A stretch of 64,000 bases of DNA from a virus. Its lineage: Duplodnaviria > Caudoviricetes. The notes beneath the pieces are model-generated. The model was not told the DNA's origin. It saw only the letters and a program-made list of their open reading frames with translations, and did not search any database. The position numbers and the translations under genes were made by a program. Positions 8,741-64,000 of the stretch are shown in pieces. Each line of letters starts with the position of its first letter. Position 1 is the stretch's first letter. Location of the stretch: the IMG/VR virus record IMGVR_UViG_3300042940_001591; one strand, written 5' to 3'.

Positions 8741-9121
8741 TTATTGTATTTTATTGAAATCTGTTATTCCTAATTGTTTATTGTTAGAATCGAATAACCC
8801 TATTCTATATGCTGATGATGGTAACGCGTTAGTGTATACCTTTAAAAGATTATCACCGGCAACTACATTCATCGTTTCTTTAGATACTACTCTGTTTGAA
8901 ATGTCGAATATTTTAACCGTCACTGAACCCGCAGTTTCGGTTTTAACATTCATTGCCACCTCAGAGGTTACAAAAACAGTTTGTAATTTAATACCGACTG
9001 AATTTGTCATTTTAAGATCTTCCGATATCGATTGAGGGGCTGGTAAAATGTCATCTTTGTAACATCCTGTTAAAATTGTGGATAATAACACCATTGAGAG
9101 AATTTTTTTCATTTTTGTCAT
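8741..9121 (-). CDS. lipoprotein with T9SS-CTD-like Ig fold
   Basis: Lipobox ILTGC; VTVKIFDISNRVVSKE..LPSSAYRIGL. Confidence 0.55.
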   Translation of the reverse strand: MTKMKKILSMVLLSTILTGCYKDDILPAPQSISEDLKMTNSVGIKLQTVFVTSEVAMNVKTETAGSVTVKIFDISNRVVSKETMNVVAGDNLLKVYTNALPSSAYRIGLFDSNNKQLGITDFNKIQ

Positions 9122-9123
9122 TT

Positions 9124-9468
9124 TTAATTTACTATTATTTTTGTTTTTTTCAATTCATTTCCATCCACACCTTTAAGTACTAAATATAAATATCCTTTAG
9201 GTAGGGAATTGGTATAAATCTTCTTCACATTTTCACCATTTTGTCCAATAAATTTTTCTCGACTAATAACTTGATTTGTTGTCACATCTATTAAGGTCAA
9301 TGTATACGTACCTGCGGAGGGTAAATCAAAATAGATAGATTGTCCGTTTGTTACCTTACTTTCTGTTACATTAAAGATATTATCTTTCGCAACCACCTCG
9401 GGCATCGGTAATTCGGGTTTAACACATCCCGTTAATAAAATAAATGATATTAATATTAATTTTTTCAT
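9124..9468 (-). CDS. lipoprotein with T9SS-CTD-like Ig fold (paralog of 8741-9121)
   Basis: Lipobox LLTGC; YTLTLID..LPKGYLYLVL..KTKIIVN. Confidence 0.55.
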   Translation of the reverse strand: MKKLILISFILLTGCVKPELPMPEVVAKDNIFNVTESKVTNGQSIYFDLPSAGTYTLTLIDVTTNQVISREKFIGQNGENVKKIYTNSLPKGYLYLVLKGVDGNELKKTKIIVN

Positions 9469-10361
9469 TAAAATTGAAAGTTTGTTCCTATCATAAACAT
9501 TATTGGATTACTTTTTTTATAACCAACTGATTCTGATAATTTATCCCAAGTTGTGTTATATCTGATATTAGTATTTAACACAAATCTTTTAGTTATTTTC
9601 CAATCAATAGATGTTCCATAATATAAGTCCAAATTGAAATCATCTATATATGTCAAATCCGATTCAGTACCATCTTTAAATACTTTATATACATCACTCA
9701 TAGCAAATATTTGTGGTGAAATGTTTACCCTCTTCGTTTTCAATGTATACGTGTACATCACCATACCTCTATAAGTAAGTTCGGATGATGATGGCATTTG
9801 TGGATATATTAAATCTTTAAAATCACCATTTTCATCTACCGTATATTTTCCTTCCCATTCACCCTGATAAGTTCCCCAAAATGATTTTGACGCAGTTAAA
9901 CTATAACCAAATGTTCCAAACTTTTTAGTTCTGAATACATCTATAAATGATAATGTAATATCTTTTTGGAAATCAAAATCGGTTGAAAAAAATGTTTGTA
10001 TTGTTGTAGTTCTCTTTTCGGTATTTTTACTAAGTCCATAACCCACACCATAATAATTCCATATAGGGTTTATTGATGTTGCGAATGTATGTCCCCATTG
10101 TCCATTCATAGATGATTTATGATACCCCAAATTAAGAGTAGTAGATACCTGTCTTCCAATTATACCAACTGATAAGTTTGAAGATGAAAGTACATCTTTT
10201 GAAAAATTAACATATGATTGCAATATACCCACATCGTTCCAATCATCACTTTCTCCAAATAATTCTTTTGGTGATAGTTGTAATGTATCGGGTGCAGGTA
10301 TTTGTGCGTTTGACACAAATCCAATTAAAACTAACGATATGATTAATAATAGTTTTTTCAT
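9468..10361 (-). CDS. probable outer-membrane beta-barrel protein
   Basis: Signal peptide ..SNA|Q; C-terminal IGTNFQF. Confidence 0.65.
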   Translation of the reverse strand: MKKLLLIISLVLIGFVSNAQIPAPDTLQLSPKELFGESDDWNDVGILQSYVNFSKDVLSSSNLSVGIIGRQVSTTLNLGYHKSSMNGQWGHTFATSINPIWNYYGVGYGLSKNTEKRTTTIQTFFSTDFDFQKDITLSFIDVFRTKKFGTFGYSLTASKSFWGTYQGEWEGKYTVDENGDFKDLIYPQMPSSSELTYRGMVMYTYTLKTKRVNISPQIFAMSDVYKVFKDGTESDLTYIDDFNLDLYYGTSIDWKITKRFVLNTNIRYNTTWDKLSESVGYKKSNPIMFMIGTNFQF

Positions 10362-12658: not shown

Positions 12659-14303
12659 TGGTTAAATCAACTTTATTTCCTTTCGCGTCAACAGCATCCG
12701 ATAAAACAAAGTAGAATAAACCCGCAGTATTTGTTAAAGTAGTTTTTGGTGTGAATATTAATTTATATGGAGTACCTACTTTAATTCTCGCACTTTTCAA
12801 TTGGTCAATAGAACCAAACGTTAATCTACCATCTTTATGTGTAGAAAAGTTTGTGATAGTTGAACCTGAATCAAATATGATATTATCCAAAGTTAATTTA
12901 GACTCATCATAATTCATTATTACTTGTAAACCTGCTAATTCTGTCTTTGTTAATGTAGTGGTTAATACAACCTTACCACCCTCTAATGTTGATGTAATAC
13001 CTAATGTTGCCTTTTCCACTGCTAAAGTTTGATAAGCCATCGGGGCAGTACTCATAGATTTTATAGAACTAGTTGCTTTATCATTTACAGAATTTGTAAA
13101 TTGACCTGCAGTTATTTTAGTTGCAATTACCGCTGGGTCGGATGAATGTGACCAGTTTAAGTCTCCACCCCACGCAAATACAGCATAAACCTCTTTTGTA
13201 GGTGAATCAATTAATACTCTATTCTTAACCACACCATCTAACCAACTTTGATTCAATAAACCACTATACCATCTTACTGATGTTGATGTGTTTGTTGGAA
13301 TCATTGCGTTTGAGTCAGTATTTTGTCCCATTACATGTGCAAATAATGCGTATGAATCTCCTTCACCAAACGCGTTTTGGTTATTGGTTACCTTACCAAC
13401 TTTCTTTTCCAATGCTGGTAGAGTAAAGAAGTTCGCGGTACCACTAATATCAGTTTGTGAGTGTCCTAAGAATGCTTTATAGGCATCTGATACGGTTACA
13501 ATGTTGTTCATCCAAGTTTTTTGAAACGCGGGTCCAACGAATACCCCAACTGAATCACCCACTTTAACTTGTGTTGTGAATAACGCTTCACCACTTGCAT
13601 CCAATGGTAATTGTGCAATAGGTTGTTGTGACCAATCAATTTCACCACTACCATTTGATTTCAATTTCATCAATTGAACATTATGGTCGGTAATAGTATA
13701 TCCTTGTGGATATAATACTTTTACTTTGAATTGTGACGTGTTACCAACAACATTACTTACAGATGACCAACCACCACCAAAGATAGTCCCAACATTTGCA
13801 CCGGCAGTGTCGGTACCCGTTGCCAAATCTATTTTGAAAATATTGTTATATGTATTTTGGTCTTTTAAAACATATTTTTGAGTCGCAATTAAACCACTAA
13901 TAGATGCATCAGCTCTTTGAACGGTTAATTGTCCAACATTCCAATCAGCATTTACCGCATAACCCCAAGGAGTTAAACCATATTGAAGATCTAAATTATT
14001 ATCACTCGTAGTGCTGTTTGGTGTAAACTTATAGTTACTCCATCCAGTGTAAAATGTTTGGGCAGACGTGCCTTGGTTAAATGCGGTTGACACATATGAT
14101 AATGCCTTATTATTAAATTGATATCTAAACCAAAGATAACGAGGGTTTTTAATTACAGTACCTTTTGTTAAGTTATATTTAACCGTTAGTGTGTCTCCTA
14201 CTTTTAATCCAGTAGTTGGTGTTATTGATTGACTAATTGTTAATTGACCGAATGATGTAAAGGCGATCAATAAAAAAAAGCTAAGAGAGAGTAGTTTTTT
14301 CAT
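12651..14303 (-). CDS. exported cohesin-like multidomain protein
   Basis: Signal ..SFG|Q; LAGLQVIMNYD; shares VTVSD and GDxNxSHS motifs with 10361-12658. Confidence 0.65.
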   Translation of the reverse strand: MKKLLSLSFFLLIAFTSFGQLTISQSITPTTGLKVGDTLTVKYNLTKGTVIKNPRYLWFRYQFNNKALSYVSTAFNQGTSAQTFYTGWSNYKFTPNSTTSDNNLDLQYGLTPWGYAVNADWNVGQLTVQRADASISGLIATQKYVLKDQNTYNNIFKIDLATGTDTAGANVGTIFGGGWSSVSNVVGNTSQFKVKVLYPQGYTITDHNVQLMKLKSNGSGEIDWSQQPIAQLPLDASGEALFTTQVKVGDSVGVFVGPAFQKTWMNNIVTVSDAYKAFLGHSQTDISGTANFFTLPALEKKVGKVTNNQNAFGEGDSYALFAHVMGQNTDSNAMIPTNTSTSVRWYSGLLNQSWLDGVVKNRVLIDSPTKEVYAVFAWGGDLNWSHSSDPAVIATKITAGQFTNSVNDKATSSIKSMSTAPMAYQTLAVEKATLGITSTLEGGKVVLTTTLTKTELAGLQVIMNYDESKLTLDNIIFDSGSTITNFSTHKDGRLTFGSIDQLKSARIKVGTPYKLIFTPKTTLTNTAGLFYFVLSDAVDAKGNKVDLTIE

Positions 14304-14318
14304 TTTATTATTTTTTTT

Positions 14319-14969
14319 TTATTTTTTATCCATTAATTTATTTATTAATTTTTCACTAGCCTTTTTAAGTGCATTACTTAAAGATGTTTGGTTAAACGAC
14401 CCCCCTTCATCGACAATAAGCGTCGACATAGAAACTTCAGATGATGATTCCTCAACAACAAATTCTTTTTCTTTTTTACCGTCTTTTGTTAATGTTCCCT
14501 TCAATCTAATAACCACTTCCTCCTGATTAGAATGGAAAACAGATATGTTCTTCTTTGTTGTAAGAACATCTAAATAAACAATTTGTACTTTTAATTTGTA
14601 AGGAGATGATGCCGATAAATCGTAGCCTTTTTCTTGTAAAAACTCTTCTAATATGTTTTTAACCCCGAATGCTAAATTTCTGTTACCAGCCAATTTACCA
14701 ATTTTAACCTCATTGGTTACACTCTCAACCCAAATATGGTCTTCAGCATTATACCAAATGTTTTCTGGAGAGTTTTTGAATGTTCCATCAATTCTCCACG
14801 AAATCCAATTAACGATATTTCGTTGCAACTCATGTTTGCCGGAAAACTCTAAATAAACAAAGAATAATTGAAAACAAAGGGCAAAGACTATCCAAAATAC
14901 TACTAATCTTAAAAATACCCAAAATAATATATTGCCTAAATTAAGTGATAATGTTCTAATTCTTTCCAT
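14319..14969 (-). CDS. membrane-anchored periplasmic protein, CsgG/LptE-like alpha-beta pattern
   Basis: N-terminal TM; LAFGVKNILEEFL..KLKVQI..ALKKASEKL. Confidence 0.5.
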   Translation of the reverse strand: MERIRTLSLNLGNILFWVFLRLVVFWIVFALCFQLFFVYLEFSGKHELQRNIVNWISWRIDGTFKNSPENIWYNAEDHIWVESVTNEVKIGKLAGNRNLAFGVKNILEEFLQEKGYDLSASSPYKLKVQIVYLDVLTTKKNISVFHSNQEEVVIRLKGTLTKDGKKEKEFVVEESSSEVSMSTLIVDEGGSFNQTSLSNALKKASEKLINKLMDKK

Positions 14970-15155
14970 ATGAAATTTTTTAAAGTACTCCTGGCAATTT
15001 TCATATGAAAAGAGTCAGGAGAGAGATAATTTTTATTTGTCCCTTATAAATATCAACACTTTATACATCTGACAAAAAAAAGTTTTTAACTTTTCTTGAT
15101 TATATACGTATTTATTAATATCTTTGTAAAAGAAAAAAAGATAAAACTAAATTCA

Positions 15156-16543: not shown

Positions 16544-16846
16544 ATGATAGATAAAATCACATTATCGTTAATGTTATTTTTTAACACATTAACATCATCT
16601 ATCGACCCAAGTCTTTCTGATGAAAGAAAGTCAGTCAATCAAATAAAAAAAGAGATTAAATCCCTTGAAAGAAAGATTGAATGGGTTGAAGTAACAGATG
16701 AGAATTACGCTAGCAGGGCCGTCAAAACCAAAGAAATCACGGACGAGATTACCAAATTGAATGGTAAAATTGTAAAGATTGAGAAGGTTGCAAAATTAAA
16801 AGAGAAATGGGCAACGGAAGATTCCTTGTCCAAATCAAAAAAATGA
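16544..16846 (+). CDS. exported coiled-coil protein
   Basis: Hydrophobic N-terminus, heptad-rich; TATTTATA at 16532-16539. Confidence 0.55.
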   Translation: MIDKITLSLMLFFNTLTSSIDPSLSDERKSVNQIKKEIKSLERKIEWVEVTDENYASRAVKTKEITDEITKLNGKIVKIEKVAKLKEKWATEDSLSKSKK

Positions 16847-17292
16847 AAAAAATTTTTTTAGTGCTAACGTTACTTTTGGGAGTGGAAGTCGTAGCAAATG
16901 GACAAGAGTGGTTTATAACCGCCACTCGAAAAGGCGGTCCATCAGACGGTTATATAACAGGTGGTTTTATGAAAAAAGGTTGGGGGTTTTATGCGGGACT
17001 TCCATACGGTGAAATAAAAACCCCAAATGGCGGAATTTCAATTCCCCCTGGTGTTAACACCAATACAGGAAATGTGTCCGATAACATGAAGTTTGGTGTT
17101 CTTAGACAATTAAAAGAAGACAAGGCGATTGTTGGATTTGGATTACAGCCAACACTTGATGGTAATAAACCAAATTTTCTTATAATGTACAATCCACTTA
17201 GGCCAAGTACTGTTATAAATTTATGGACAATTGGTAATTTAGTCGGTAGTGATTTTACATTAGGACTTGGATTATCGTATAAAGTAAAATAA
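16843..17292 (+). CDS. probable small outer-membrane beta-barrel protein
   Basis: Start moved to MKKIFL; signal ..ANG|Q; C-terminal LGLGLSYKVK. Confidence 0.55.
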   Translation: MKKIFLVLTLLLGVEVVANGQEWFITATRKGGPSDGYITGGFMKKGWGFYAGLPYGEIKTPNGGISIPPGVNTNTGNVSDNMKFGVLRQLKEDKAIVGFGLQPTLDGNKPNFLIMYNPLRPSTVINLWTIGNLVGSDFTLGLGLSYKVK

Positions 17293-17413
17293 AATAAAAT
17301 TTTAGTTAAGTTAATTCCCTGAACAAACTAAAAAAATTGTTCGGGGTTTTTTTATATCACATTTTTTGTTTATGTTTGAGTTATAGTTCTTTGATGTATT
17401 GGAAAAACAAAAT

Positions 17414-17498
17414 GCCTGAGTGATGAAATGGTATACATGACAGACTTAAAATCTGTTGAGCAGAAACGCTCGTGCGGGTTCAAGTCCCGCCTCAGGTA
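17414..17498 (+). tRNA. tRNA-Leu(TAA)
   Basis: GCCTGAG/CTCAGGT, loop CTTAAAA. Confidence 0.9.
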
Positions 17499-36124: not shown

Positions 36125-36373
36125 TTATTCTAAACCAAAGTCTTTTTCTTCTCTATCCGTTAATTCACCATCTCTTTTCATACCTTCTTTAATGTAATTT
36201 CTAATTAATTTAGATACAGTTACTTCTTGGTTATTTGCAACTTTCTCAATCTCCTTATAATAAGCAGGAACAACTCTAAATGTTAACATTTTTATCAATT
36301 GCTTATGTTTTGGTTGACTTGAGCTTGGTTTGTCGTTCGATGATTGCATTTCTTTATATGCGTCTGATGCCAT
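36125..36373 (-). CDS. ribbon-helix-helix DNA-binding protein
   Basis: MLTFRV..IEKVA..VSKLIRNYI. Confidence 0.6.
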   Translation of the reverse strand: MASDAYKEMQSSNDKPSSSQPKHKQLIKMLTFRVVPAYYKEIEKVANNQEVTVSKLIRNYIKEGMKRDGELTDREEKDFGLE

Positions 36374-51141: not shown

Positions 51142-51873
51142 TTAAGGTTGTTTATCGTACCACTTCTTTAATGAACTCATATAACCAGCAGTCATATGGT
51201 CCTTAATGTTCTTTCCGGTAACCATAGATTTAAGGAAATTCCAAGCACGTTCCCAATCAATCATAAATTTCTTAATATTACCGTTATAATCGATTCGTAA
51301 CATGTGATTGACGTGATAGTACCCTATGTTCGGAGAACGTGTCACCACGTCGTTATTATGGACGATTCTGAGGGTTTTAATCTTCTTACTGTCGTAGTTG
51401 TTCTTAAAGGTCTTATTACCGACCCTTGGACTCCCTATGGTACAACATTCAATAGTGGTATCCTCAAATACGTGGGAAAGGTTATAAGCACATAGAGTAG
51501 CAACTGCAGCTCCAAGACTATGACCACATACAACAATCTTATTATACCCACTCATCTTGGTGATGTCTTTGAGGATGGTGTTCTTAACGGCATCCCAAGA
51601 AGACTTAAACCCAATATGGACCTTGTCACCCTCAAGGATAAATGGAACCTTATCTATCGACACATCATTCTGAGCATCCTTCTTGGATGACGTACCTCTG
51701 AAGACCACATAGAGTGACTTCCCTTTCAGGGCAACAAATCCTTGGGTATCTGATTTCTTATCATCAATCCACTTAACGGATGTTAATCCAAGTGATTTGA
51801 AGTCAATGTCTTTTTGGTCTTTATATACAACGTCACATAATTGAACGTTATAGATTACTTCGTCTTTATTCAT
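51142..51873 (-). CDS. class 3 lipase
   Basis: VVFRGT, VHIGF, GHSLGAA, GSPRVG, DVV, DH. Confidence 0.85.
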   Translation of the reverse strand: MNKDEVIYNVQLCDVVYKDQKDIDFKSLGLTSVKWIDDKKSDTQGFVALKGKSLYVVFRGTSSKKDAQNDVSIDKVPFILEGDKVHIGFKSSWDAVKNTILKDITKMSGYNKIVVCGHSLGAAVATLCAYNLSHVFEDTTIECCTIGSPRVGNKTFKNNYDSKKIKTLRIVHNNDVVTRSPNIGYYHVNHMLRIDYNGNIKKFMIDWERAWNFLKSMVTGKNIKDHMTAGYMSSLKKWYDKQP

Positions 51874-54851: not shown

Positions 54852-54899
54852 ATGGTATATAATATACTCAAAAAAGTCGAATTCCCCAAAAAAATCCCA

Positions 54900-55135
54900 A
54901 AAATTTTTATTTTTAAATCTTAAATGTGCACAGTAAAAAGTCTTAAATGTGAGCAGTGGAAAACCTTAAATTTCTCAAAAAATTTCCGGAAAAATTTCTG
55001 TTACGGCATTGACCCCCCTATTAGGATGTCAAAATACCCCCTATATAAGGGGGGATACGGGGAGGGGGGACCCCCCACCTATGGGTATAGGGAGGTCTAC
55101 CCAGTAATAAGTCCCCTGTGTATCCTGAGGTCCCA
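54900..55135. other. GC-rich homopolymer/hairpin element at the transcription strand switch
   Basis: G/C runs (CCCCCC, GGGGGG), TCTTAAATGTG x2, AAAAATTTCCGGAAAAATTT. Confidence 0.5.
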
Positions 55136-55214
55136 TGAACCTTATGAAAACATTAACATTAGTATTTGGTATAATGAAACTAATGTTATATCTTTGTCTT
55201 CTAAATCAAATGAT

Positions 55215-55421
55215 ATGAAAAAAACTTATAACAGAATGTTCAATGTCGGAATGACATTGGTGTCCGTATGTTCCCTACTCCTATTCCTCGGTTTTTTGGT
55301 TGATGACGGGAGTATTCAACTTGATAGTAGTTATAATTGGATAGGTACCTTATGGACAATGGTATTCTTATTCGGTGTATTGTTAATATTAATTAGTGTT
55401 CCTAACACAGATTCAAAATAA
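55215..55421 (+). CDS. cassette 1: 68-aa two-TM protein
   Basis: Start moved to MKKTYN; promoter TATCTTTG 55189-55196. Confidence 0.6.
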   Translation: MKKTYNRMFNVGMTLVSVCSLLLFLGFLVDDGSIQLDSSYNWIGTLWTMVFLFGVLLILISVPNTDSK

Positions 55422-56198
55422 AAGATTAGTTCTCCCCCTCCCCCTAACCCTCATCGTTAATTCGGTGGGGGTTTTTTATTTCTCCCACTCCTCGTCCACG
55501 ACACGGTAACTTTTACAAGAAACCTTACTGGGTTATTTTGGAAGGAAACCTGATTTTTTTTCTGATCCTTGTTTTTGTTTACTGGGGTAATGCCAACGAG
55601 ATGAAAAAAAAATTCTCCGATTTCAGGAATTGGTTACTGGGTTGTTACCCCAGGAATGTTTTTCACGACATCCGGTAGATGACTCAACTGGAAAACAACC
55701 CAGTAAGGTTATTAATAAAATTTTCCGACGATCAGAAAAAGTTACCCTAGTAATGTTTTCGGATTTCCAGGGTTTTCTGGATTTTTGGGTCATTAAAAAA
55801 AGTTACCCCAGTAATAAAAAAAGTTTGTAAACAACAAAAAAAATTTTTATCTTTATATTCTAAAAAAAAAAATATTCATTTCGTCACCCCAGTAATATAG
55901 TTTTACTTTTCTCCGATTTTTTACTAATTCCAGTACAACCAAATTTTTTTTGAGTTTTTTTTATTTCAACACCCCAGTAATATTATTTTTACGAAGAAAA
56001 AAAAAATTTTTCCTGGTTTTCAAAAAAACCTTACTGGGGGATATAAAAAAATTTCAATGGATTTTTCAAATAACTTTACTGGGGTGTTACCCCAGGAATA
56101 TATTTCATGGGAACCTCACCTTCACAAAAGTTTAACAGATTTATTTTGGAATAAACTGGTAATAGTGTTATATTTGTATACACTAAAAACAAAATGAA

Positions 56199-56537
56199 AT
56201 GACTACTGAACAAACACTAATGGAGTTGGGTGTACGAGAGTTCGACCCAAATCAAACTTTGTATGTATTGACAAGAACACAAGGGGGTGTACCTTATATG
56301 TGTTGGGGTGTTAAAAAACTTATCCGAATCGGTCTTACCGATGATGGTTATGTTAAAGGTATTCTATTGAAAGTTAATGGTATGAAGTGGAAACAATTCG
56401 TATTGATTACTTTGAATGGTTTAGATTATTATGAAGTTCGATTGATAAATGATATGATGGTTGTGATTGAAACAATTGACAACGACATTATGTTTGATGA
56501 ATTGGTTGATGTTATCGATAAGTTGATTGAGAGTTAG
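56199..56537 (+). CDS. cassette 2: hypothetical protein
   Basis: Own promoter and terminator. Confidence 0.65.
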   Translation: MTTEQTLMELGVREFDPNQTLYVLTRTQGGVPYMCWGVKKLIRIGLTDDGYVKGILLKVNGMKWKQFVLITLNGLDYYEVRLINDMMVVIETIDNDIMFDELVDVIDKLIES

Positions 56538-56937
56538 GTTTATGTTTTCATAGGTTTTTTGGTTGAATCCCTCGGACTTTTAGTTCGGGGGATTTTTGTT
56601 TGTGGAAGAATCTCCGTCACACTGTTGGACAGGTATGACATATTACTGGGATATTGAAGATAGAGTCTGAGGAAATTTATAACGATCACCGGTATTACAT
56701 TACTGGGATATGTGAAGAAAACTACGAGTCGTGGGACCATCATGGACGTAAATCAATTACTGGGTAATACATCCCAGTAAAATCGTTTTCACCTCTTGAG
56801 GAATTCTTCATCTTCATTTCCCCAGTAATACATTATCCCCCGTTTACCGGTTAATAAATTTTTAGAAAGTTTTAACATTTTTATTTTGTATATAATGAAA
56901 TTAGTTTTATATTTGTGGACACTAAACACATAAACAA

Positions 56938-57573
56938 ATGGAAACATTAAAAAGAAAGGTTGGTCGACCTCGTAAAAACGAAACGACAACATTAAGAAAT
57001 TTCGAAAATGAAATCTTGATGACAAAAGAAAAAATCAAAGAATTGGAGAACAAGTATTATCAAAGTGAAACCTCTTTCGTTAGTAGAGTGGATAAAATCA
57101 AGGATAATATGTTCAACAATTATATGATGAGAAGAAAAATCTACGAAGAAGAAGTGGAAAGATTAACCAAAAAAATTGTTAAGAAAGACACTAAAAAATT
57201 CGTTGAAGGTCAAATCGTGGTTAGAAAACATTGGAACAATGAGAATACCTTTGTTCTAATTACCAAAGTGTATGACGGAAATACTGAAAAACATTATTAT
57301 TGGGATTGTGGTGGGTTTAAGTATTGTACTATCGGTGTAGGTGGGGTTGGTACAAAGTGGGGTAATCATTGGTTTAACGATGAAGAAAATAGAAATGTTG
57401 ATATTGTTTGTGATACACGAAACTTTGTAAAACTTTGTGAGAAGTACGGAATTAAGAAACCGAAGTTAAATAAATCCAATATGGAAATTATTTATGAAAA
57501 CATATTCGGTAAGAAGTTGAACGACACATTTAATTACAACGACCTACATAAGTTGGGTATAATAACTAAATAA
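56938..57573 (+). CDS. cassette 3a: AT-hook-like N-terminus, coiled coil
   Basis: KRKVGRPRK. Confidence 0.6.
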   Translation: METLKRKVGRPRKNETTTLRNFENEILMTKEKIKELENKYYQSETSFVSRVDKIKDNMFNNYMMRRKIYEEEVERLTKKIVKKDTKKFVEGQIVVRKHWNNENTFVLITKVYDGNTEKHYYWDCGGFKYCTIGVGGVGTKWGNHWFNDEENRNVDIVCDTRNFVKLCEKYGIKKPKLNKSNMEIIYENIFGKKLNDTFNYNDLHKLGIITK

Positions 57574-57574
57574 T

Positions 57575-57832
57575 ATGGAAAGATATAGAAGGTCGTATTA
57601 CTCGGACGAAAACTTTATTATATCAATTTACGTTAATAACACTCCTCTTTGGGAAAGTACAAGAATAACAATTAAAAATGGGGATAGAAAACGTGAGGTG
57701 TATAAAGATTTTAAACATACTCACAAAGTTATAACCGACATTTATTGTTGTTTAATTGAAAACAAGGTTAAGGGTAATACAATACGAGAGATTATAAAAG
57801 ACATTACAAATAAAATCATTTATAAAGATTAG
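57575..57832 (+). CDS. cassette 3b: hypothetical protein
   Basis: Follows 3a by 1 nt, then terminator. Confidence 0.55.
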   Translation: MERYRRSYYSDENFIISIYVNNTPLWESTRITIKNGDRKREVYKDFKHTHKVITDIYCCLIENKVKGNTIREIIKDITNKIIYKD

Positions 57833-58167
57833 TATTTGTGGTGTTAGTGAAAATTGGGGTATCAGAAATGATATCCCTTTTTTTATGTCCAAGAATTTCT
57901 ACATCATCTTCCCATCCGGATATTTTACTGGGTTATGCTTCGTGAAGTCTGAAGAAATCTCCGATGACCATCAGTATTAGATTACTGGGTAGAACATCCC
58001 AGTAAATGATTTTTTATTTTTACAGAAATTCTTCGTCTTCATTTTTCCCAGTAAAATATTTCCCTTCAGACCGGTTAATAAATTTTTAGAAAAGATTAAC
58101 AGATTTATTTTGTATATAATGGAATTAGTTTTATATTTGTGTATTCTTTAATCTTTAATGTTATGAT

Positions 58168-58836
58168 ATGAACACCTTCAACAATCACAAAGGAACGAAC
58201 AAGAGTACGGCCAGGAATATAATGGTCGAAGCAATCCACAACTCGGAAACAAAGAACTACAAAATCCTATCTTTGCCAGCTGAACATTTTGAAATTGAAA
58301 AAACAATTTACCAGGATGTATCCAGAAAGTATCGGTATGTTATGTGCGAACGAGATGAACTAACCTTCGACAAATTAAAACGAAATATCAAGAAACAAAA
58401 AATGAAGTATTTCGTTGGGAAAACTCCTTCACTTTATTTTGGTTCAATCGGGGATATTATATACAATGCAAACAAAGGGGAGTATAGCCATTTGATATTG
58501 GACTATTGTGGTCAAATTGGTACATTTCACCAGGAACTCCAATACATTTTTAGAAACGATATTATCGAGGTGGATGGTACTATATCCCTAACATTCAACA
58601 AACGAATTACACCAGGACCTTCTACAATTTTTTGTAATACTATCGATAAGTTAAACACTTATCAAATACCGAAAGGTCAAGACAATGGTAAAACTATGAG
58701 GGTTATCAAAACTTTTATTAATCGTGAGGGTGGTTACAAGTATGACATTGAGAACATTTTCGAATATACCGACAACAATAACGGAAGTAGTAAGGGAGCA
58801 GCGATGGTTTTGGTTATTGTAAGACGAATAAAATAG
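58168..58836 (+). CDS. cassette 4: SAM-dependent methyltransferase-like fold
   Basis: ILSLPA..VMCERD..GSIGD..LILDYCG. Confidence 0.45.
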   Translation: MNTFNNHKGTNKSTARNIMVEAIHNSETKNYKILSLPAEHFEIEKTIYQDVSRKYRYVMCERDELTFDKLKRNIKKQKMKYFVGKTPSLYFGSIGDIIYNANKGEYSHLILDYCGQIGTFHQELQYIFRNDIIEVDGTISLTFNKRITPGPSTIFCNTIDKLNTYQIPKGQDNGKTMRVIKTFINREGGYKYDIENIFEYTDNNNGSSKGAAMVLVIVRRIK

Positions 58837-59122
58837 TATTGTTCTTGAAAAACTGACCTCCGTTTCTACGGAGGTTTTTTTATGCCCAAGATTTCTTGTT
58901 CTCCCGTCGATTCAGATTTATTACTGGGGGACGTATTACCCAGTAATTGATTTCAGGAGGAACCACAGATTTTACATTATACTCATTCCCCAGTAATACA
59001 TTTACGGCGTCGGAACCATTAGATAAATTTCTTTAAATAAATTTGGTGGTTTAATATTATTGTTATATCTTTGTATCAACAAAAAGGAAATAGTATTTTA
59101 TTCACTTTAAAATGTAAATGTT

Positions 59123-59482
59123 ATGTTAATTAAACTGACAAATTCAAATTCAAAACGACCAGTGGTAATGAATCCACAAAATGTGCACTCAATGTATGAA
59201 ATCATTGACAAGAATACGGGCGAGCCTGTAACCAAAGTTCACTTCAACGAGAATAGTTATATCATTGTAACTGAACGACTTGAAACAATTTATAACATTC
59301 ATTGGGCAAATTCTAAACAAATGGATTTAGATTGGAATGTTCAACCGATTGATGAACAAATGGAAAACTCCTTCATACAACGACCAAGATACCCTCAACG
59401 TGTTCCTCGTAATGAGTATCGAGAAAACAATCGACAAAGAAATTATAATACGTATGATACCTATAATCAAAACACATATTAA
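59123..59482 (+). CDS. cassette 5a: FlbD-like small beta domain plus Arg/Asn/Gln-rich tail
   Basis: IKLT..VVMNPQNV..TKVHF..IVTERLETI. Confidence 0.45.
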   Translation: MLIKLTNSNSKRPVVMNPQNVHSMYEIIDKNTGEPVTKVHFNENSYIIVTERLETIYNIHWANSKQMDLDWNVQPIDEQMENSFIQRPRYPQRVPRNEYRENNRQRNYNTYDTYNQNTY

Positions 59483-59483
59483 G

Positions 59484-59630
59484 ATGAAAGATATGATAAA
59501 GACGATTATTGAGGTCTACAAGGAAGACAAAAGGGAATTTTGGGATGCAATTTTTAGTTTGATATTAATAATTGGAACATTTTACTTTATGTTTTGGTTT
59601 TTTATCCCTACATTTGCGTACGATATGTAA
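59484..59630 (+). CDS. cassette 5b: 48-aa single-TM protein
   Basis: Start moved to MKDMIK. Confidence 0.5.
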   Translation: MKDMIKTIIEVYKEDKREFWDAIFSLILIIGTFYFMFWFFIPTFAYDM

Positions 59631-59954
59631 AGACAATAGTTTTGTTTAATAGTGTGGTTAGTAAGTGAGCCCTCATCAGAAATGGTGGGGGTTTCTCTTT
59701 TTAGGTGTATTACCGAATCAGCGCAAACGCAACTGCCGTTACAACAATGCAGATGGGACAATTTTACTGGGATGAACGTATGACATTTCCCAGTAATGTC
59801 GTGTCGTCTGCTTGTAAAAAACTACATCTTCGTATTACCCCAGTAATAAAAGCAATGTAACAACACGGGAAAAATTCTTTCACAAAATTTTAACAAAAAA
59901 ACTTTTTATATAAAAATAATATTTGTATATTTGGGTACTAAACATTTAAACAAA

Positions 59955-60155
59955 ATGACTACACAAATCACAACACAAAAATTCAATTTCATTGGGAACA
60001 ATGAGGTTAAGGGTTGGTTTAAACTGACCGATGGTACAAAGACAAACTTTCACATCCAAGAAAATGGGGAAGTCAAACAATGGGGGGACTCAAACAATAA
60101 TGAGGTACATCCTGTCGTTTTAGGTTTATTGGAAATGTTATTTTCTAACGAATAA
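59955..60155 (+). CDS. cassette 6a: hypothetical protein
   Basis: ATG after AAACAAA. Confidence 0.55.
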   Translation: MTTQITTQKFNFIGNNEVKGWFKLTDGTKTNFHIQENGEVKQWGDSNNNEVHPVVLGLLEMLFSNE

Positions 60156-60166
60156 AACCTATAACA

Positions 60167-60376
60167 ATGTTTGAACTATTAAAAATCAGAAAACAATTAG
60201 TTGGTAAAAGAATTAGATTAATTCTAATGGATGATGACCCAAAGACAAACCCTATTCAACCTAACACAATGGGTACGATTGTATTCGTTGATGATATGGG
60301 TTACTATGGTGTGGATTGGGATAACGGAAGGAGTTTATCCGTAATTCCCGAAGAAGATAAGTTTGAAATAATGTAA
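60167..60376 (+). CDS. cassette 6b: DUF4314 family protein
   Basis: GKRIRLILMDDDP..GTIVFVDDMG..VDWDNGRSL..EDKF. Confidence 0.75.
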   Translation: MFELLKIRKQLVGKRIRLILMDDDPKTNPIQPNTMGTIVFVDDMGYYGVDWDNGRSLSVIPEEDKFEIM

Positions 60377-60732
60377 TAGACTCAACACAATTATTTTAGA
60401 AACCCTACGACTTTTAGTTGTGGGGTTTTTTGTTTTTAAGAAGTGTGGGTGGAACCGAGTCTCCAGGAAAACTATACTGGGGTATTACACAACAATGAAC
60501 CTTGAATCTGATCATCCAGGAAAAGTTTCCTGGGGTAAAAACGTATTACACCCCCAGTAATATCGAACAGGTAGATCTACAGATTTTTTTTCTTTACGTC
60601 CCCAGTATTGTTTTCCTGCATCAACACATCGATACATGTTTTTTCGTTTTCCCCAGTATTGTTTTCCTGAACGGGACAGATTTTATGTCAGAGAGTCCCC
60701 AGTAATTTATTTCTGGATCAAGGGGAAAAAAG

Positions 60733-60776
60733 TTATCCACAATTTGTCCACAAAAAAAAATTAAGAATGTGGATAA
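60733..60776. promoter_or_regulatory. cluster of three DnaA-box-like 9-mers
   Basis: TTATCCACA 60733-60741, TTGTCCACA 60744-60752, TGTGGATAA 60768-60776. Confidence 0.55.
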
Positions 60777-60853
60777 AAAAATATTAAATATATTTTGTTA
60801 TATTGGATAAAAGTTGTAATTTAGAGTATTGAAAAAATAAACAAAATAATGTT

Positions 60854-61384
60854 ATGAAAAAAAATCGTTTCAAAATCCTACAAGGTGAGTTTATCAAAAT
60901 GATGAACGAGGTTAAAAATCCTACATTTATGAATTTAGTTACACACACTATCCCAAAAATGAACAAAGGGGGTAGGGAAGGTTTGAACAAGTATTATGGA
61001 AAAGTTGTGAAGAAAAAATCGGTTAGAGTTTTAATCGGTGGTGAGTACGAACAACGAGTAAAGGGTAACGAAATTAAGGGTGGTGGTGAAGGTAATTTTC
61101 AAGTAAGTGAAAATAAAGTTGGTAACCATATCAACAATGTTATCCTTTACAACGAAAATACAAAAAAGTATTATCTTCAATACGAGTGGTTTATGGAAGT
61201 GAAACCAAAAGTTGAATTTGAATTTGAGGGAAACCCTATTGACCAAACTTTGTTTGATAGTTGGTTAGTGAAGTCCAACAATTACAAAAATCAACCGAGT
61301 GAAAGAAAGGTACAAACCTTATCGGTAAGTTTAGATAATGTTAAAGAAGTGTCATACAACGGAAACATTTACGAGTTCATTTAA
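60854..61384 (+). CDS. cassette 7: hypothetical protein
   Basis: Own promoter variant and terminator. Confidence 0.65.
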   Translation: MKKNRFKILQGEFIKMMNEVKNPTFMNLVTHTIPKMNKGGREGLNKYYGKVVKKKSVRVLIGGEYEQRVKGNEIKGGGEGNFQVSENKVGNHINNVILYNENTKKYYLQYEWFMEVKPKVEFEFEGNPIDQTLFDSWLVKSNNYKNQPSERKVQTLSVSLDNVKEVSYNGNIYEFI

Positions 61385-61667
61385 AGGTTAGTTCCCCTAC
61401 TAACCGAAGTCCACTCCGAAAGGGGTGGATTTTTTTTGTCCAAGAATTTCTCCATCTCCGTCCATCTGTTTTTATTACTGGGTAATACAAGAAGAACCTC
61501 ATCATCAGGAAGACAGAGTCGAAAAATTACTGGGGTATCATTGTCATACATCCCAGTAAATTATTTTACCTTCACGGGTATCCAAAATTCTTTGACAATA
61601 TTTTAACAAATTTATTTTTGATATAACCGAATTAGTTGTATATTTGTGTACACTAAAAAACATTAAA

Positions 61668-62228
61668 ATGAGAAAGTATGAATTAGTTGTCGAACACGAT
61701 AACGACCCAATGAATCCTCGTACCGAGTGGGATAACATTACTACAATGATTTGTTTTCACAAAAGGTACGATATTGGTGACAAAACTGACTACAAAAGTG
61801 TTGACTTTGATAGTTGGGATGAATTGAAGTCACAAATTGAAAGTGACCATAAAGTCCTTTTGATTAAACCTTTGTATATGTACGACCATAGTGGTATAAC
61901 TATATCCACAAGTCCGTTCAGTTGTCAATGGGATAGTGGACAAGTTGGTTGGGTTTTCATAAGTGAAAAACAATTGAACTTAATGTGTGGTAAAGAATTT
62001 GAAAGGGGTGAAGAAAAGTTAAGTTTGATTATGAATAGTGAAGTTAGAATTTATGATGAATACTTAACGGGTGAAGTTTACCAATACAAAGTTTACGAAA
62101 TTGAAACTTGTAATAAAGGTCACGAACACAAAACATTAGTTGAATGTTGTGGAAGTTATTATAGTGAGGACGATTGTTGGGATGAAGGTAAGTCCGTATT
62201 ACGACATTTAGAAGGAGTAGTTGTGTAG
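61668..62228 (+). CDS. cassette 8: conserved mobile-element hypothetical protein
   Basis: PLYMYDHSG..S..FSCQWDSGQVGW, motif recalled from ICE/phage uncharacterised proteins. Confidence 0.6.
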   Translation: MRKYELVVEHDNDPMNPRTEWDNITTMICFHKRYDIGDKTDYKSVDFDSWDELKSQIESDHKVLLIKPLYMYDHSGITISTSPFSCQWDSGQVGWVFISEKQLNLMCGKEFERGEEKLSLIMNSEVRIYDEYLTGEVYQYKVYEIETCNKGHEHKTLVECCGSYYSEDDCWDEGKSVLRHLEGVVV

Positions 62229-62567
62229 AAATACATAGGTTGGAAAGGTGAAGAAGGGTAGTCGAAAGACTATCCTTTTTTTTGTTCATACCTCAGGTCC
62301 TCGACCGGTTAGGTGTATTACTTTACTGGGGAGTTTATAGTGTGTGTTAGAATTTCCGACGCGACGGTTCGGACGTATTACTTTACTGGGGAGTTTACCC
62401 AGTATTAATTTCCAGTAGGTCCCCGAACTGGAATTCTTGTATTACCCAGTAATATATTTGGATTACCAGGGTCAGAAAAAAAGTAAAATAATTTTTCATA
62501 AATGTATTGTAAAACGGAATTTCTTTTTTATATTTGTATTGTCTACTAACCAATAGACCTACACACT

Positions 62568-62888
62568 ATGGACACTTTGTTCACTTCCCAAATCGAAAAA
62601 ACTCTAAATTCCAATGTGGAGTTTGAGTTCTCCTTGGACTTCCAAGGTCAAGTTGAATACATTGAGTCGGAGAACACCGACCAATTTTTGGAGTACGAAC
62701 TCGTACTTCTATTCCTTGTTGAAAAGGATTTGATTCCTATCAACGAGAGAACCGAAGGAGTTGTCACCATCGAGAATGGTGTTGTTGAAATTTTCTACAA
62801 GACTTGTACCCAAGTCGGTGAGGATTGGAATGATGATGTGTGGGATGAAAAAACTTCCGAACATTCAGTACAAGATTTGTTGGTGTAA
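62568..62888 (+). CDS. cassette 9: highly acidic protein
   Basis: About 25 D/E vs 5 K/R in 106 aa. Confidence 0.65.
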   Translation: MDTLFTSQIEKTLNSNVEFEFSLDFQGQVEYIESENTDQFLEYELVLLFLVEKDLIPINERTEGVVTIENGVVEIFYKTCTQVGEDWNDDVWDEKTSEHSVQDLLV

Positions 62889-63088
62889 TAAAACCACCTA
62901 CTTTAATAAGACCTCCGATTCTGTCGGGGGTTTTTTTATGTCCAAAATTTTTCTCGACCTGATCGTCCGGTAAGTTTACTGGGGTGTTTACCCAGTAATG
63001 TATTTGGATACGAGAGTCAGATTTAAAAAATAAATTTGGTGTATAACAATTATTGTTGTATATTTGTAGACACTAAAAAATAAAATGT

Positions 63089-63358
63089 ATGACACAAGAA
63101 GAAATTGAAATTGTAAAAAACACTATCTATTCAGTTGTTGAAGGACACATTGATAGTGAAATTAATTATGAGTGGGTTGGTAGTGATTTTACCGAAAGGA
63201 TAATGGATAACCTACCGATTGATAAAAAAATGTCTTTCGTTAGGATTGTCCAAAATAGTAGTAGTGATGTTCAATTTGATAACGAATTGTATGTGAAGTT
63301 CCTTAATCATATTACCGACTTTCTTTATAGTGGTTTGGAGTTTGAAACCAAAGAATAA
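63089..63358 (+). CDS. cassette 10: acidic protein
   Basis: D/E in excess; own promoter and terminator. Confidence 0.6.
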   Translation: MTQEEIEIVKNTIYSVVEGHIDSEINYEWVGSDFTERIMDNLPIDKKMSFVRIVQNSSSDVQFDNELYVKFLNHITDFLYSGLEFETKE

Positions 63359-63634
63359 AATTTTTTAGATTTTAACCCTCACAGAAATGTGGGGGTTTTT
63401 TATGTCCACAGATTTCCCGTCCCTGATCATCCCATAAAATTACTGGGGTGTATCCGTATATATCCGTGTTTATCTGTAAACGTATTCGATTCCCCAGTAA
63501 TATCAGTAGCTCTGATCACAGGTGGATCAGGAGAAAAAAATTAATTAATATTTCTTAAAAATAAATTTGGATTATATGCCAAATTGATTTATCTTTGTCA
63601 TACAATCATTTATTAAACCATAAAAATTAAACAG

Positions 63635-64000
63635 ATGGAAATCGTAGAAAACAATCGGGTTAATCAGTTCTTGGATAGAACTGGTTTAAATTGGAAAGTC
63701 CGTACCGAAGGACTTCAAACTTCGTCAGGAATTATTATCCCTGATAAAATTGGTATTGTTCGTGAGGACGATAGTACAATCTTGGGTATTCACTCGAATG
63801 GTTATGTACCATATCAGAATGACCAAATGATGGAACTATTATTCAAAGTATCCCAACAAACTGGACTTGATGTTCACAGAGGTGGTTTGTTTGGTGGTGG
63901 ACGAAAAGTATTCGTTCAATTAAAATCAAACGACTTAACCTTGGGGACGGATAGAATCGAGGGTTATGTTACTGGGATTAATTCTTTTGATGGTTCGACT
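63635..64000 (+). CDS. cassette 11: DUF932 family protein (truncated at window edge, not in ORF track)
   Basis: MEIVENNRVNQFLDRTGLNWKV..VREDD..LG..Y.PYQN..GGLFGGGRKVFVQL..NSFDGS. Confidence 0.8.
   Translation, partial: MEIVENNRVNQFLDRTGLNWKVRTEGLQTSSGIIIPDKIGIVREDDSTILGIHSNGYVPYQNDQMMELLFKVSQQTGLDVHRGGLFGGGRKVFVQLKSNDLTLGTDRIEGYVTGINSFDGST

Follow-up and report, generated by a model that had tools for sequence, protein, structure and literature searches.

Global operator regulons of mobile elements are known from the KorB OB sites of IncP plasmids and the omega-repressor heptads of pSM19035; omega tolerates repeats in a direct or convergent, but not in a divergent, arrangement, and KorB acts from far-upstream sites. 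In the ribosomal DNA (rDNA) transcribed by RNA polymerase I (Pol I), the TTF-I/Reb1 sites are arranged as terminator repeats T1-T10 behind the gene and T0 ahead of the promoter; they form a polar roadblock and take part in promoter activation and looping. The repetitive extragenic palindromes and bacterial interspersed mosaic elements (REP/BIME) of enterobacteria are bound by gyrase and IHF. In T4-type phages, promoter-early stem-loops (PeSLs) were described (Arbiol 2010, PMC2839356; Comeau 2014, PMC4122927). The present analysis concerns a 64,000-nt stretch of viral DNA (Duplodnaviria; Caudoviricetes; IMG/VR record IMGVR_UViG_3300042940_001591), referred to as the window, in which an array of small gene cassettes is interrupted by spacers filled with copies of one 8-mer word, reading TTACTGGG (plus copy) or CCCAGTAA (minus copy) on the plus strand. 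These copies constitute a real and previously undescribed cis-element system within a cassette array, and the chances are about even that the 8-mer forms the core of oriented sites at which a lineage-specific DNA-binding factor docks to regulate or insulate the early cassettes.

The window derives from a large phage of lake water. The runs containing its sequence are lake metagenomes, CheckV estimates imply a genome of ~330 kb, and relatives occur on contigs 131-334 kb long. The window encodes 11 tRNAs and one tmRNA, and its Bacteroidota-type promoters (TTTG at -33, TAnnTTTG at -7) suggest that the host belongs to the Bacteroidota. When 50,697 phage records were searched with the array by megablast, no match was obtained, and the nearest cultured matches were distant Flavobacterium phages sharing one lectin domain only. 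The word occurs as 38 exact copies in the window, 19 per strand and all within 55100-63976, and the comparison with shuffled sequence proposed by the initial annotation gave an expectation of 2.09 copies with a maximum of 5. When the copies at 55100 (ahead of the first promoter) and 63969 (in the DUF932 open reading frame, ORF) are excluded, 18 plus and 18 minus copies remain in the ten spacers, exactly as had been counted before, and the earlier picture of 11 promoter-ORF-terminator units with motif-packed spacers was borne out. The window truncates the array: close relatives, found through the protein of 61668-62228 (phrog_6186, called F0, the array gene conserved most widely), carry the word 9-10 kb further; the array as relatives show it is a delimited block some 18-19 kb long. 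On the 131-kb contig of a 91%-identical relative, 63 of the 64 word copies fall inside 18.9 kb, and on a 69-kb relative contig all 61 fall inside 17.6 kb, so that the even genome-wide spread which the initial annotation had named as speaking against its view is not observed. The block begins in the divergent gap 54852-55190, directly 3' of a conserved G/C-run element, and closes in a convergent non-coding stretch of ~850 bp rich in small GC hairpins. No direct repeats able to excise the block were found flanking its start and end boundaries.

A cassette consists of a -7 box, its ORF or ORFs and an intrinsic terminator, and a spacer is the gap from the terminator to the next promoter. Ten plus-strand intrinsic terminators follow ORFs, and the region holds 22 terminator-like sites against 5.7 expected. 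TAT(A/C)TTTG -7 boxes lie at 55189, 56169, 56908, 58132, 59066, 59926, 61639, 62529, 63059 and 63590, while the cassette at 60854 has a less canonical promoter. On the minus strand only two TAnnTTTG boxes were found in the whole array region, and the plus copies are therefore not upstream sites of leftward promoters. Because the copies follow terminators and precede promoters, the earlier proposal that the spacers act at the level of DNA is supported. The Logan RNA-library contigs placed on the array fall in ORFs (56947-57131 and 60858-61271) and, among those listed, none lies in a spacer; this support is weak, as gaps in cover are uninformative and DNA carry-over is possible. An Rfam scan of the spacers returned no family, so the word is not a known RNA, and in the literature the word returned primers only and giant-phage intergenic repeats nothing relevant.

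Within the spacers, plus copies precede minus copies. Plus-then-minus transitions within clusters outnumber the reverse by 11:1 in the window, and by 9:2, 7:0, 17:2 and 9:0 in the other lineages L007, L021, L029 and L031, respectively; the mid-spacer flip of polarity noted earlier for spacers 2-10 thus holds, with spacer 1 as the sole exception. Of 21 pairs of neighbours in the same orientation, 18 are spaced at 45-60 bp, whereas the gaps of inner plus/minus pairs are 7, 8, 10, 17, 18 and 45 nt in the window and 2-98 nt elsewhere, and most copies stand single, outside inverted pairs. The array is also tied to its borders at both ends. The first plus copy lies 42-51 nt past the terminator stem in 9 of the 10 window spacers, 40-54 nt past it in 25 of 27 spacers of three lineages (range 34-69) and 37-51 nt in 16 of 17 spacers of L029; in L031 the distance is less regular, with 42-50 nt in 6 of 9. 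At the other end, 14 independent spacers of the window lineage could be compared, and in 9 the last minus copy is placed 84-89 nt ahead of the -7 box, the remaining distances being 67/68, 74/77 and 97, with outliers in ~10-nt steps, and the intervening sequence is unrelated among spacers (median ungapped identity 35%). A Rayleigh test with a 10.5-bp period gave p = 0.0007 in the window and 0.0009 in L029, with the same phase, and control periods of 8 and 13 bp gave weak signals. The sites are in this sense helically phased relative to the promoters, with the caveat that the promoter modules share part of their ancestry. In the distal half of the block, where genes are packed in operons, the copies are single, all sense and often within ORFs; the sense orientation, including inside ORFs, holds for at least 18 of 19 distal copies over three lineages, and about half of the isolated plus copies are mid-ORF.

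Selection acts on the word itself. In an alignment of the array with four relatives, identity amounts to 99.3-100% in the motif columns, 87-96% in the remaining spacer columns and 91-94% in ORF columns, a purifying selection on site versus flanks as found in operator regulons. The extended site form is a-n-n-TTACTGGG-g; the flanks of each copy drift freely, and whole repeat units of ~57 bp were gained or lost among relatives. No second box was found at a fixed distance, so the word stands alone, and GTAATAC or GTATTAC occurs close by some copies. GATC is located 15-21 nt upstream of the core in 25%, 31% and 46% of the sites of the window array, L007 and L021, against a background of 3-8%, but as a general component of the site it was rejected, being absent in the lineages of TTGTCTGGA (L029) and TTACCGGG (L031).

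At least five other lineages share the grammar but use different words. These are TTACCGGG (35 copies in 13 kb of L031), TTGTCTGGA (54 copies in 14 kb of L029), YCTGGCA (26 copies of (A)GTTTYCTGGCA(A) in 14 kb of L021), TTGTTTGGCA (36 copies of (A/T)TTGTTTGGCA(A) in 13.5 kb of L007) and TTGTGTGGCA (L066, with the same architecture), and the common form of all words is TT..Y-YGG, followed by G, GA, A or CA. The words of L029, L031 and L066 are located downstream of the 15-mer of the start element. L007 encodes an F0 protein 71% identical to that of the window and has no copy of TTACTGGG. In L021 the patterns are '+ -', '+ + -' and '+ + + + - -', with distal single plus copies and two final minus copies. 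The window lineage and L007 each carry their own word at homologous positions inside the array genes F11 (3' end) and F12, and a plus copy stands shortly ahead of the F12 start in all three lineages (window-type, L007 and L021). At least six words occur among these phages, and all word types share one Bacteroidota-type promoter. Since the positions are kept while the word is replaced throughout, a reader that changed together with its sites is required; since its specificity differs between phage lineages, the docking factor is most likely phage-encoded.

Based on these findings, a model is proposed in which a protein would dock on sites placed about every 50 bp (about five turns), which would fill the spacer from terminator to promoter with the left half in one orientation and the right half in the other. 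The outermost plus site would lie near the front edge of an RNA polymerase halted at the upstream terminator, and the outermost minus site would present a fixed helical face ~90 bp ahead of the point where transcription starts at the next host-type early promoter. Once occupied, the array could act on the whole 19-kb early block at once, and the factor may modulate the early promoters, as a boost or a shut-off, and insulate the cassettes from read-through and from their neighbours. The gap-free distal operons would tolerate only sense-oriented copies, and the strict sense orientation of these intra-operon copies suggests that the bound factor is polar, tolerating sense transcription and acting against oncoming opposite traffic. 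The repeated cassette edges may double as substrates of PeSL-type homologous exchange, which is read as a by-product. Of the functions considered in the initial annotation, the loading of a phage protein onto the motif is the one best supported here. In a more specific form of the model, which is rather unlikely as it stands, this large freshwater giant phage clade would possess a polar 'cassette insulator', an oriented protein coating every early terminator-to-promoter gap. Backed onto a terminator at one end of the gap and a promoter at the other, such a protein would stop polymerases or forks arriving from the wrong side and couple terminator to promoter in a TTF-I-like manner, and protein and ~50 sites would have switched specificity together at least six times.

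Several observations weigh against oriented docking sites of this kind. A plain operator model predicts neither the strict orientation rule, nor the sense-only copies inside distal-operon ORFs, nor the fixed link between plus site and terminator. The early promoters look intrinsically strong, which makes the need for an activator less evident, and sites at ~-93 lie outside the core promoter, unlike classical repressor sites; that the reader is a host factor has a small probability. Moreover, domain searches of five partial relative genomes (69-234 kb) did not find a binding protein for the word: HTH_3 and ParB_N domains were not detected, and neither were MotA C-terminal (MotCF) and AP2 domains, a result of little weight because the controls were negative too. 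The small ribbon-helix-helix (RHH) candidate at 36125-36373 on the minus strand, which the initial annotation had put forward as a possible binder, was rejected as the specificity reader, since its DNA-contact beta-strand is identical in two lineages with different words. Pfam and PHROGs scans of the array proteins revealed no DNA-binding domain, ESM Atlas look-ups of F11 and F12 returned nothing, and clustering of ORFs at 101 loci gave no local protein whose clades track the word.

Two proteins encountered in this search may be recorded on their own account. The RHH-like protein has 82 aa, falls below the Pfam thresholds for RHH and reaches 73% identity in a lineage with array proteins of no more than ~37% identity, as in a well-conserved small regulator. 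The 211-aa product of 56938-57573, found only in the window lineage, has by eye an AT-hook-like KRKVGRPRKN at its N-terminus, a coiled-coil-like stretch and a Cys-rich C-terminal part, and Pfam gave a weak CxC4 match only.

Other explanations of the word were weighed against the docking-site model. A single 8-bp promoter element is known in the T4 late box, and co-evolution of promoters with a polymerase or its factor is the classical cause of concerted word change (T7, T3 and SP6). The word could be a stand-alone promoter element read by the host polymerase together with a phage sigma-like or appropriating factor in a middle mode, the plus copies being tandem middle promoters behind each terminator as in the middle-promoter stem-loops (PmSLs) of phage nt-1. 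Terminator-plus-middle-promoter composites have in fact been described (PMC4122927), and isolated copies are oriented along the direction of the genes, with a plus copy 29-52 nt ahead of the F12 and F11 start codons in L004 and a copy ~28 nt (L007) or ~51 nt (L021) ahead of the F12 start. Yet half of all copies face the preceding terminator, often opposed to plus copies 2-8 nt away, no -7-like box accompanies the word at a fixed distance, and about half of the isolated plus copies are mid-ORF. A MotA-like domain was not found in the five partial genomes, where the controls were negative as well, and the RNA contigs begin near host-type promoter starts, a weak indication. A promoter function is unlikely. 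The helical phasing to host-type promoters, along with the failure to find a phage reader, would suit the regulon of a host transcription factor copied by the phage, whereby host physiology gates the early genes and different words reflect different hosts. This explanation is improbable, as at least six words accompany the same Bacteroidota-type promoter and each phage has 50-60 sites, including intra-ORF and terminator-linked ones; the word is also not enriched in 401 Bacteroidota genomes, although a small regulon would escape such counts. Strict orientation could alternatively mark a polar signal for a moving DNA machine, either a Chi/KOPS-like sequence for a nuclease or translocase or a Tus/Ter-like barrier against forks or antisense polymerases that come in from the distal array end with its DnaA boxes. 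The all-sense distal copies, even within ORFs, the availability of both orientations in each spacer and a perfect DnaA box just past the last copy in three lineages agree with such a signal, but it would be limited to 19 kb of a ~330-kb genome, and fixed, phased distances to promoters and terminators are not expected of a translocase signal. Chi-like excess was not observed in the same 401 genomes, each with at most ~190 copies (a set that need not include the true host), and the idea remains quite improbable. An iteron-type origin does not agree with more than 20 clusters in both orientations over 19 kb. Action in RNA, as a nuclease or regulator site or as hairpins of UUACUGGG with CCCAGUAA in read-through transcripts, appears extremely improbable: sense-only copies inside operons and inner pairs able to fold as 8-bp hairpins with T-rich tails speak for it, but most copies lie behind efficient-looking terminators, the sequence itself rather than pairing is conserved, pair gaps vary and Rfam gave no match. 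Hairpin promoters of an N4-type virion RNA polymerase are likewise not indicated, with most copies single and loop lengths varying.

Recombination needs separate consideration, because the cassettes are gained and lost. The homology of cassette edges pointed out by the initial annotation is evident in the terminator tails (a T-run, then a ATGTCCAAGAATTTCT-like sequence) and in the promoter modules 56821-56915 and 58047-58139. Gene order is colinear between lineages and differences are single-cassette indels; each of the cassettes of 58168-58836 and 63089-63358 is either complete or missing, and the crossovers fall within the ~60-nt repeated terminator tail. For 63089-63358 the crossovers differ: L002 has its crossover at the T-tract/ATGTCCA, L004 and L001 have theirs close to the first plus copy. 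Tyrosine and serine recombinases (PF00589 Phage_integrase and PF00239 Resolvase) gave no match in the five partial genomes. Variable crossovers together with no recombinase found fit PeSL-like homologous exchange and not site-specific recombination. In fact, two hallmarks of PeSLs are present, namely indels between close relatives ending in repeated elements and a composite of terminator and host-type early promoter between small ORFs, although here the two are 190-700 nt apart. The inverted pairs might still be the core sites at which a site-specific recombinase or transposase cuts cassettes out and inserts them, since CCCAGTAA ... TTACTGGG bracket each cassette, relatives differ by whole-cassette indels and a metagenomic relative (run X18) shows another cassette order with two cassettes missing. 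Such a system is very improbable: shared genes keep their order across lineages, most copies are unpaired, pair gaps range from 2 to 45 nt and more, and neither a fixed 6-8-bp crossover spacer between inverted half-sites nor a single exchange point was found. On present evidence the word does not appear to be a site-specific recombination site, contrary to the second function suggested for it in the initial annotation. The comparison of relatives proposed there showed cassette content to vary and the order of shared genes to be kept between lineages; its integron analogy fails because the cassettes carry their own promoters, and its analogy to T4-type promoter stem-loops is apt for the cassette edges but not for the motif array. 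High-depth joints in run X13, with sides of 20-31 nt in repeated sequence of promoters or terminators, were regarded as artefacts of the assembly graph. As a separate observation, the terminator tail (57885-57980, 62939-62974 and 63401-63436) starts with ATGTCCA(A/C)(G/A)A and opens short frames (MSKNF..., MSKIF..., MSTDF...) that have no promoter or evident start context and are probably conserved DNA rather than coding.

The array may be followed from left to right. A non-coding, G/C-run-rich start element (54983-55099), with AAGGGGGGATACGGG at 55047-55061 and 76% identity to L007 6601-6687, sits in the divergent gap that separates the leftward genes from the first rightward cassette. The first motif copy (55100-55107, minus) follows 39 nt past this element and 89 nt ahead of the first -7 box; the first site past the start element is a minus copy also in L029, L031, L058 and L066. 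Cassette 1 (55189-55473, plus strand, as are all the following cassettes) comprises the -7 box 55189-55196, a 68-aa hydrophobic ORF (55215-55421) and the terminator 55446-55473. Spacer 1 (55474-56168, 695 nt) holds three plus, four minus and two plus exact copies in that order, as well as near-copies, and is the only one that violates the plus-before-minus rule. Cassette 2 (56169-56595), with -7 box 56169, ORF 56199-56537 and terminator 56565-56595, is followed by spacer 2 (56596-56907), in which plus copies at 56643, 56700 and 56757 precede minus copies at 56773 and 56821; the inner pair forms an 8-N8-8 palindrome, and in the relative L001 this spacer is short by exactly one 57-bp unit. Cassette 3 (56908-57877) has its -7 box at 56908, ORFs 56938-57573 and 57575-57832 and terminator 57856-57877, and spacer 3 (57878-58131) has plus copies at 57925 and 57982 and minus copies at 57998 and 58047. 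Cassette 4 (58132-58876; ORF 58168-58836 of 222 aa; terminator 58855-58876) is missing as a whole unit in L001, and spacer 4 (58877-59065) has one plus copy (58921) and two minus copies (58939 and 58989). The ORFs 59123-59482 and 59484-59630 with terminator 59667-59694 make up cassette 5 (59066-59694), behind which spacer 5 (59695-59925) contains a plus copy at 59764 and minus copies at 59789 and 59839. Cassette 6 (59926-60430) encodes ORFs 59955-60155 and 60167-60376 (DUF4314) and ends with terminator 60398-60430; spacer 6 (60431-60853) contains the near-copies ATACTGGG and TTCCTGGG and two exact minus copies (60553 and 60698), behind which three DnaA-box-like sites follow (60733-60776). Next come cassette 7 (60854-61433; ORF 60854-61384; terminator 61406-61433) and spacer 7 (61434-61638; plus 61475 and 61527, minus 61552), then cassette 8 (61639-62281), with the F0 ORF and terminator 62250-62281, and spacer 8 (62282-62528; plus 62323 and 62383, minus 62445, near-copy 62398). 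Cassette 9 (62529-62934; ORF 62568-62888; terminator 62908-62934) precedes spacer 9 (62935-63058), whose plus copy at 62976 and minus copy at 62991 form an 8-N7-8 palindrome. Cassette 10 (63059-63397; ORF 63089-63358; terminator 63374-63397), missing as a whole unit in L001-L004, is followed by spacer 10 (63398-63589; plus 63440, minus 63493). Cassette 11 (63590-64000, -7 box 63590) is cut by the window end and contains a DUF932 ORF from 63635 with the intra-ORF plus copy at 63969.

The borders of the block and spacer 6 contain additional conserved DNA. The 15-mer of the start element is present in 101 IMG/VR viral contigs, many of 290-360 kb, of which 64 non-redundant versions align. Its form is GG.ATTGT-CCCCCC, ~25 nt, TATATAAGGGGGGATACGGG and then G runs, and the element might serve as an origin, as an end for packaging or entry, or as a small RNA. 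Some phages with this 15-mer have no clear motif array, and in L051 (repeat at 9016-9550), L071, L094 and L115, which share the start element, a 66-bp tandem repeat with a GGTGGAAGAGGTATTAAATCATAA core replaces the dispersed word. The array-closing non-coding region (L009 7905-8750 in minus-strand view, L022 13400-14250 and L021 13400-13900) has colinear blocks conserved between lineages: GGGGACC..GGTCCCC hairpins, then CTTCAG and GTATTAC, a tRNA-T-arm-like GGGTCAATCCCCA, and the perfect DnaA box that stands just past the last copy in all three lineages. The copy of the window lineage includes one TTGTTTGGCAAA, which is the L007-type word, and Rfam and tRNA searches of this distal non-coding region gave no match. 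The DnaA-box-like sites of spacer 6 are two perfect TTATCCACA in opposite orientations and one TTGTCCACA within 44 bp; they separate the motif copies from the non-canonical promoter of ORF 60854-61384, and four relatives conserve them in full.

The array genes include members of DUF932 (63635-64000), DUF4314 (60167-60376), DUF1281_C (Api92-like), GP88 and DUF1737, with the L004 genes at 16821-17456, 14319-15119 and 12711-12995 among them. These families are common in the leading, first-entering regions of conjugative elements, a pattern that agrees with the block having an early, anti-defence or takeover function. A protein with a class-3 lipase domain (Pfam E = 1.5e-30) is encoded immediately left of the array, at 51142-51873 on the minus strand.

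Early host-takeover blocks of giant phages are largely unexplored, and the one described here displays a clear and conserved regulatory grammar, consisting of one word, a ~50-bp period, a single flip per spacer and fixed links to terminators and promoters. The wholesale replacement of the word in sister lineages provides a natural experiment on the co-evolution of a reader with ~50 sites. The array thereby offers a handle for finding the reader, and possibly orthogonal insulator or regulator parts for Bacteroidota. Two look-alikes are also separated, in that the repeated edges explain gene gain and loss as in PeSLs while the motif array does something else.

Compared with known systems, the array resembles integron attC arrays in its small accessory genes separated by repeats and in cassette gain and loss, but it differs in that the units come with promoters and terminators of their own, an integrase was not found, the repeats lack the imperfect-palindrome form of attC and the crossovers vary. 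With REP/BIME it shares short extragenic words clustered behind terminators in both orientations; BIMEs, however, alternate and occur genome-wide, whereas here there is one flip per spacer in one promoter-phased block. The likeness to KorB and omega would consist in one element-encoded protein reading many dispersed sites near many promoters, and the differences are that 50-60 sites are concentrated in one block, lie ~50 bp apart instead of contiguously and are linked to terminators too, and that no ParB or RHH reader was found. In TTF-I/Reb1 systems, repeated oriented sites likewise follow a T-rich release element and recur ahead of the next promoter; these are eukaryotic, and the analogy is one of layout with no homology implied. 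PeSLs are closest in unit structure, with single-gene units in a hyperplastic early region, each bounded by a terminator stem-loop and a host-type early promoter, and with close relatives that differ by whole-unit indels at repeated edges. In PeSLs, however, stem-loop and promoter form one compact composite without a third component, while here the gap between them holds 2-9 oriented copies of a separate, independently selected and lineage-changing word. In conclusion, the cassette array is of the PeSL type with the motif arrays as an added component, for which plasmid global operator regulons and the TTF-I/Reb1 sites of rDNA appear to be the nearest functional analogues.

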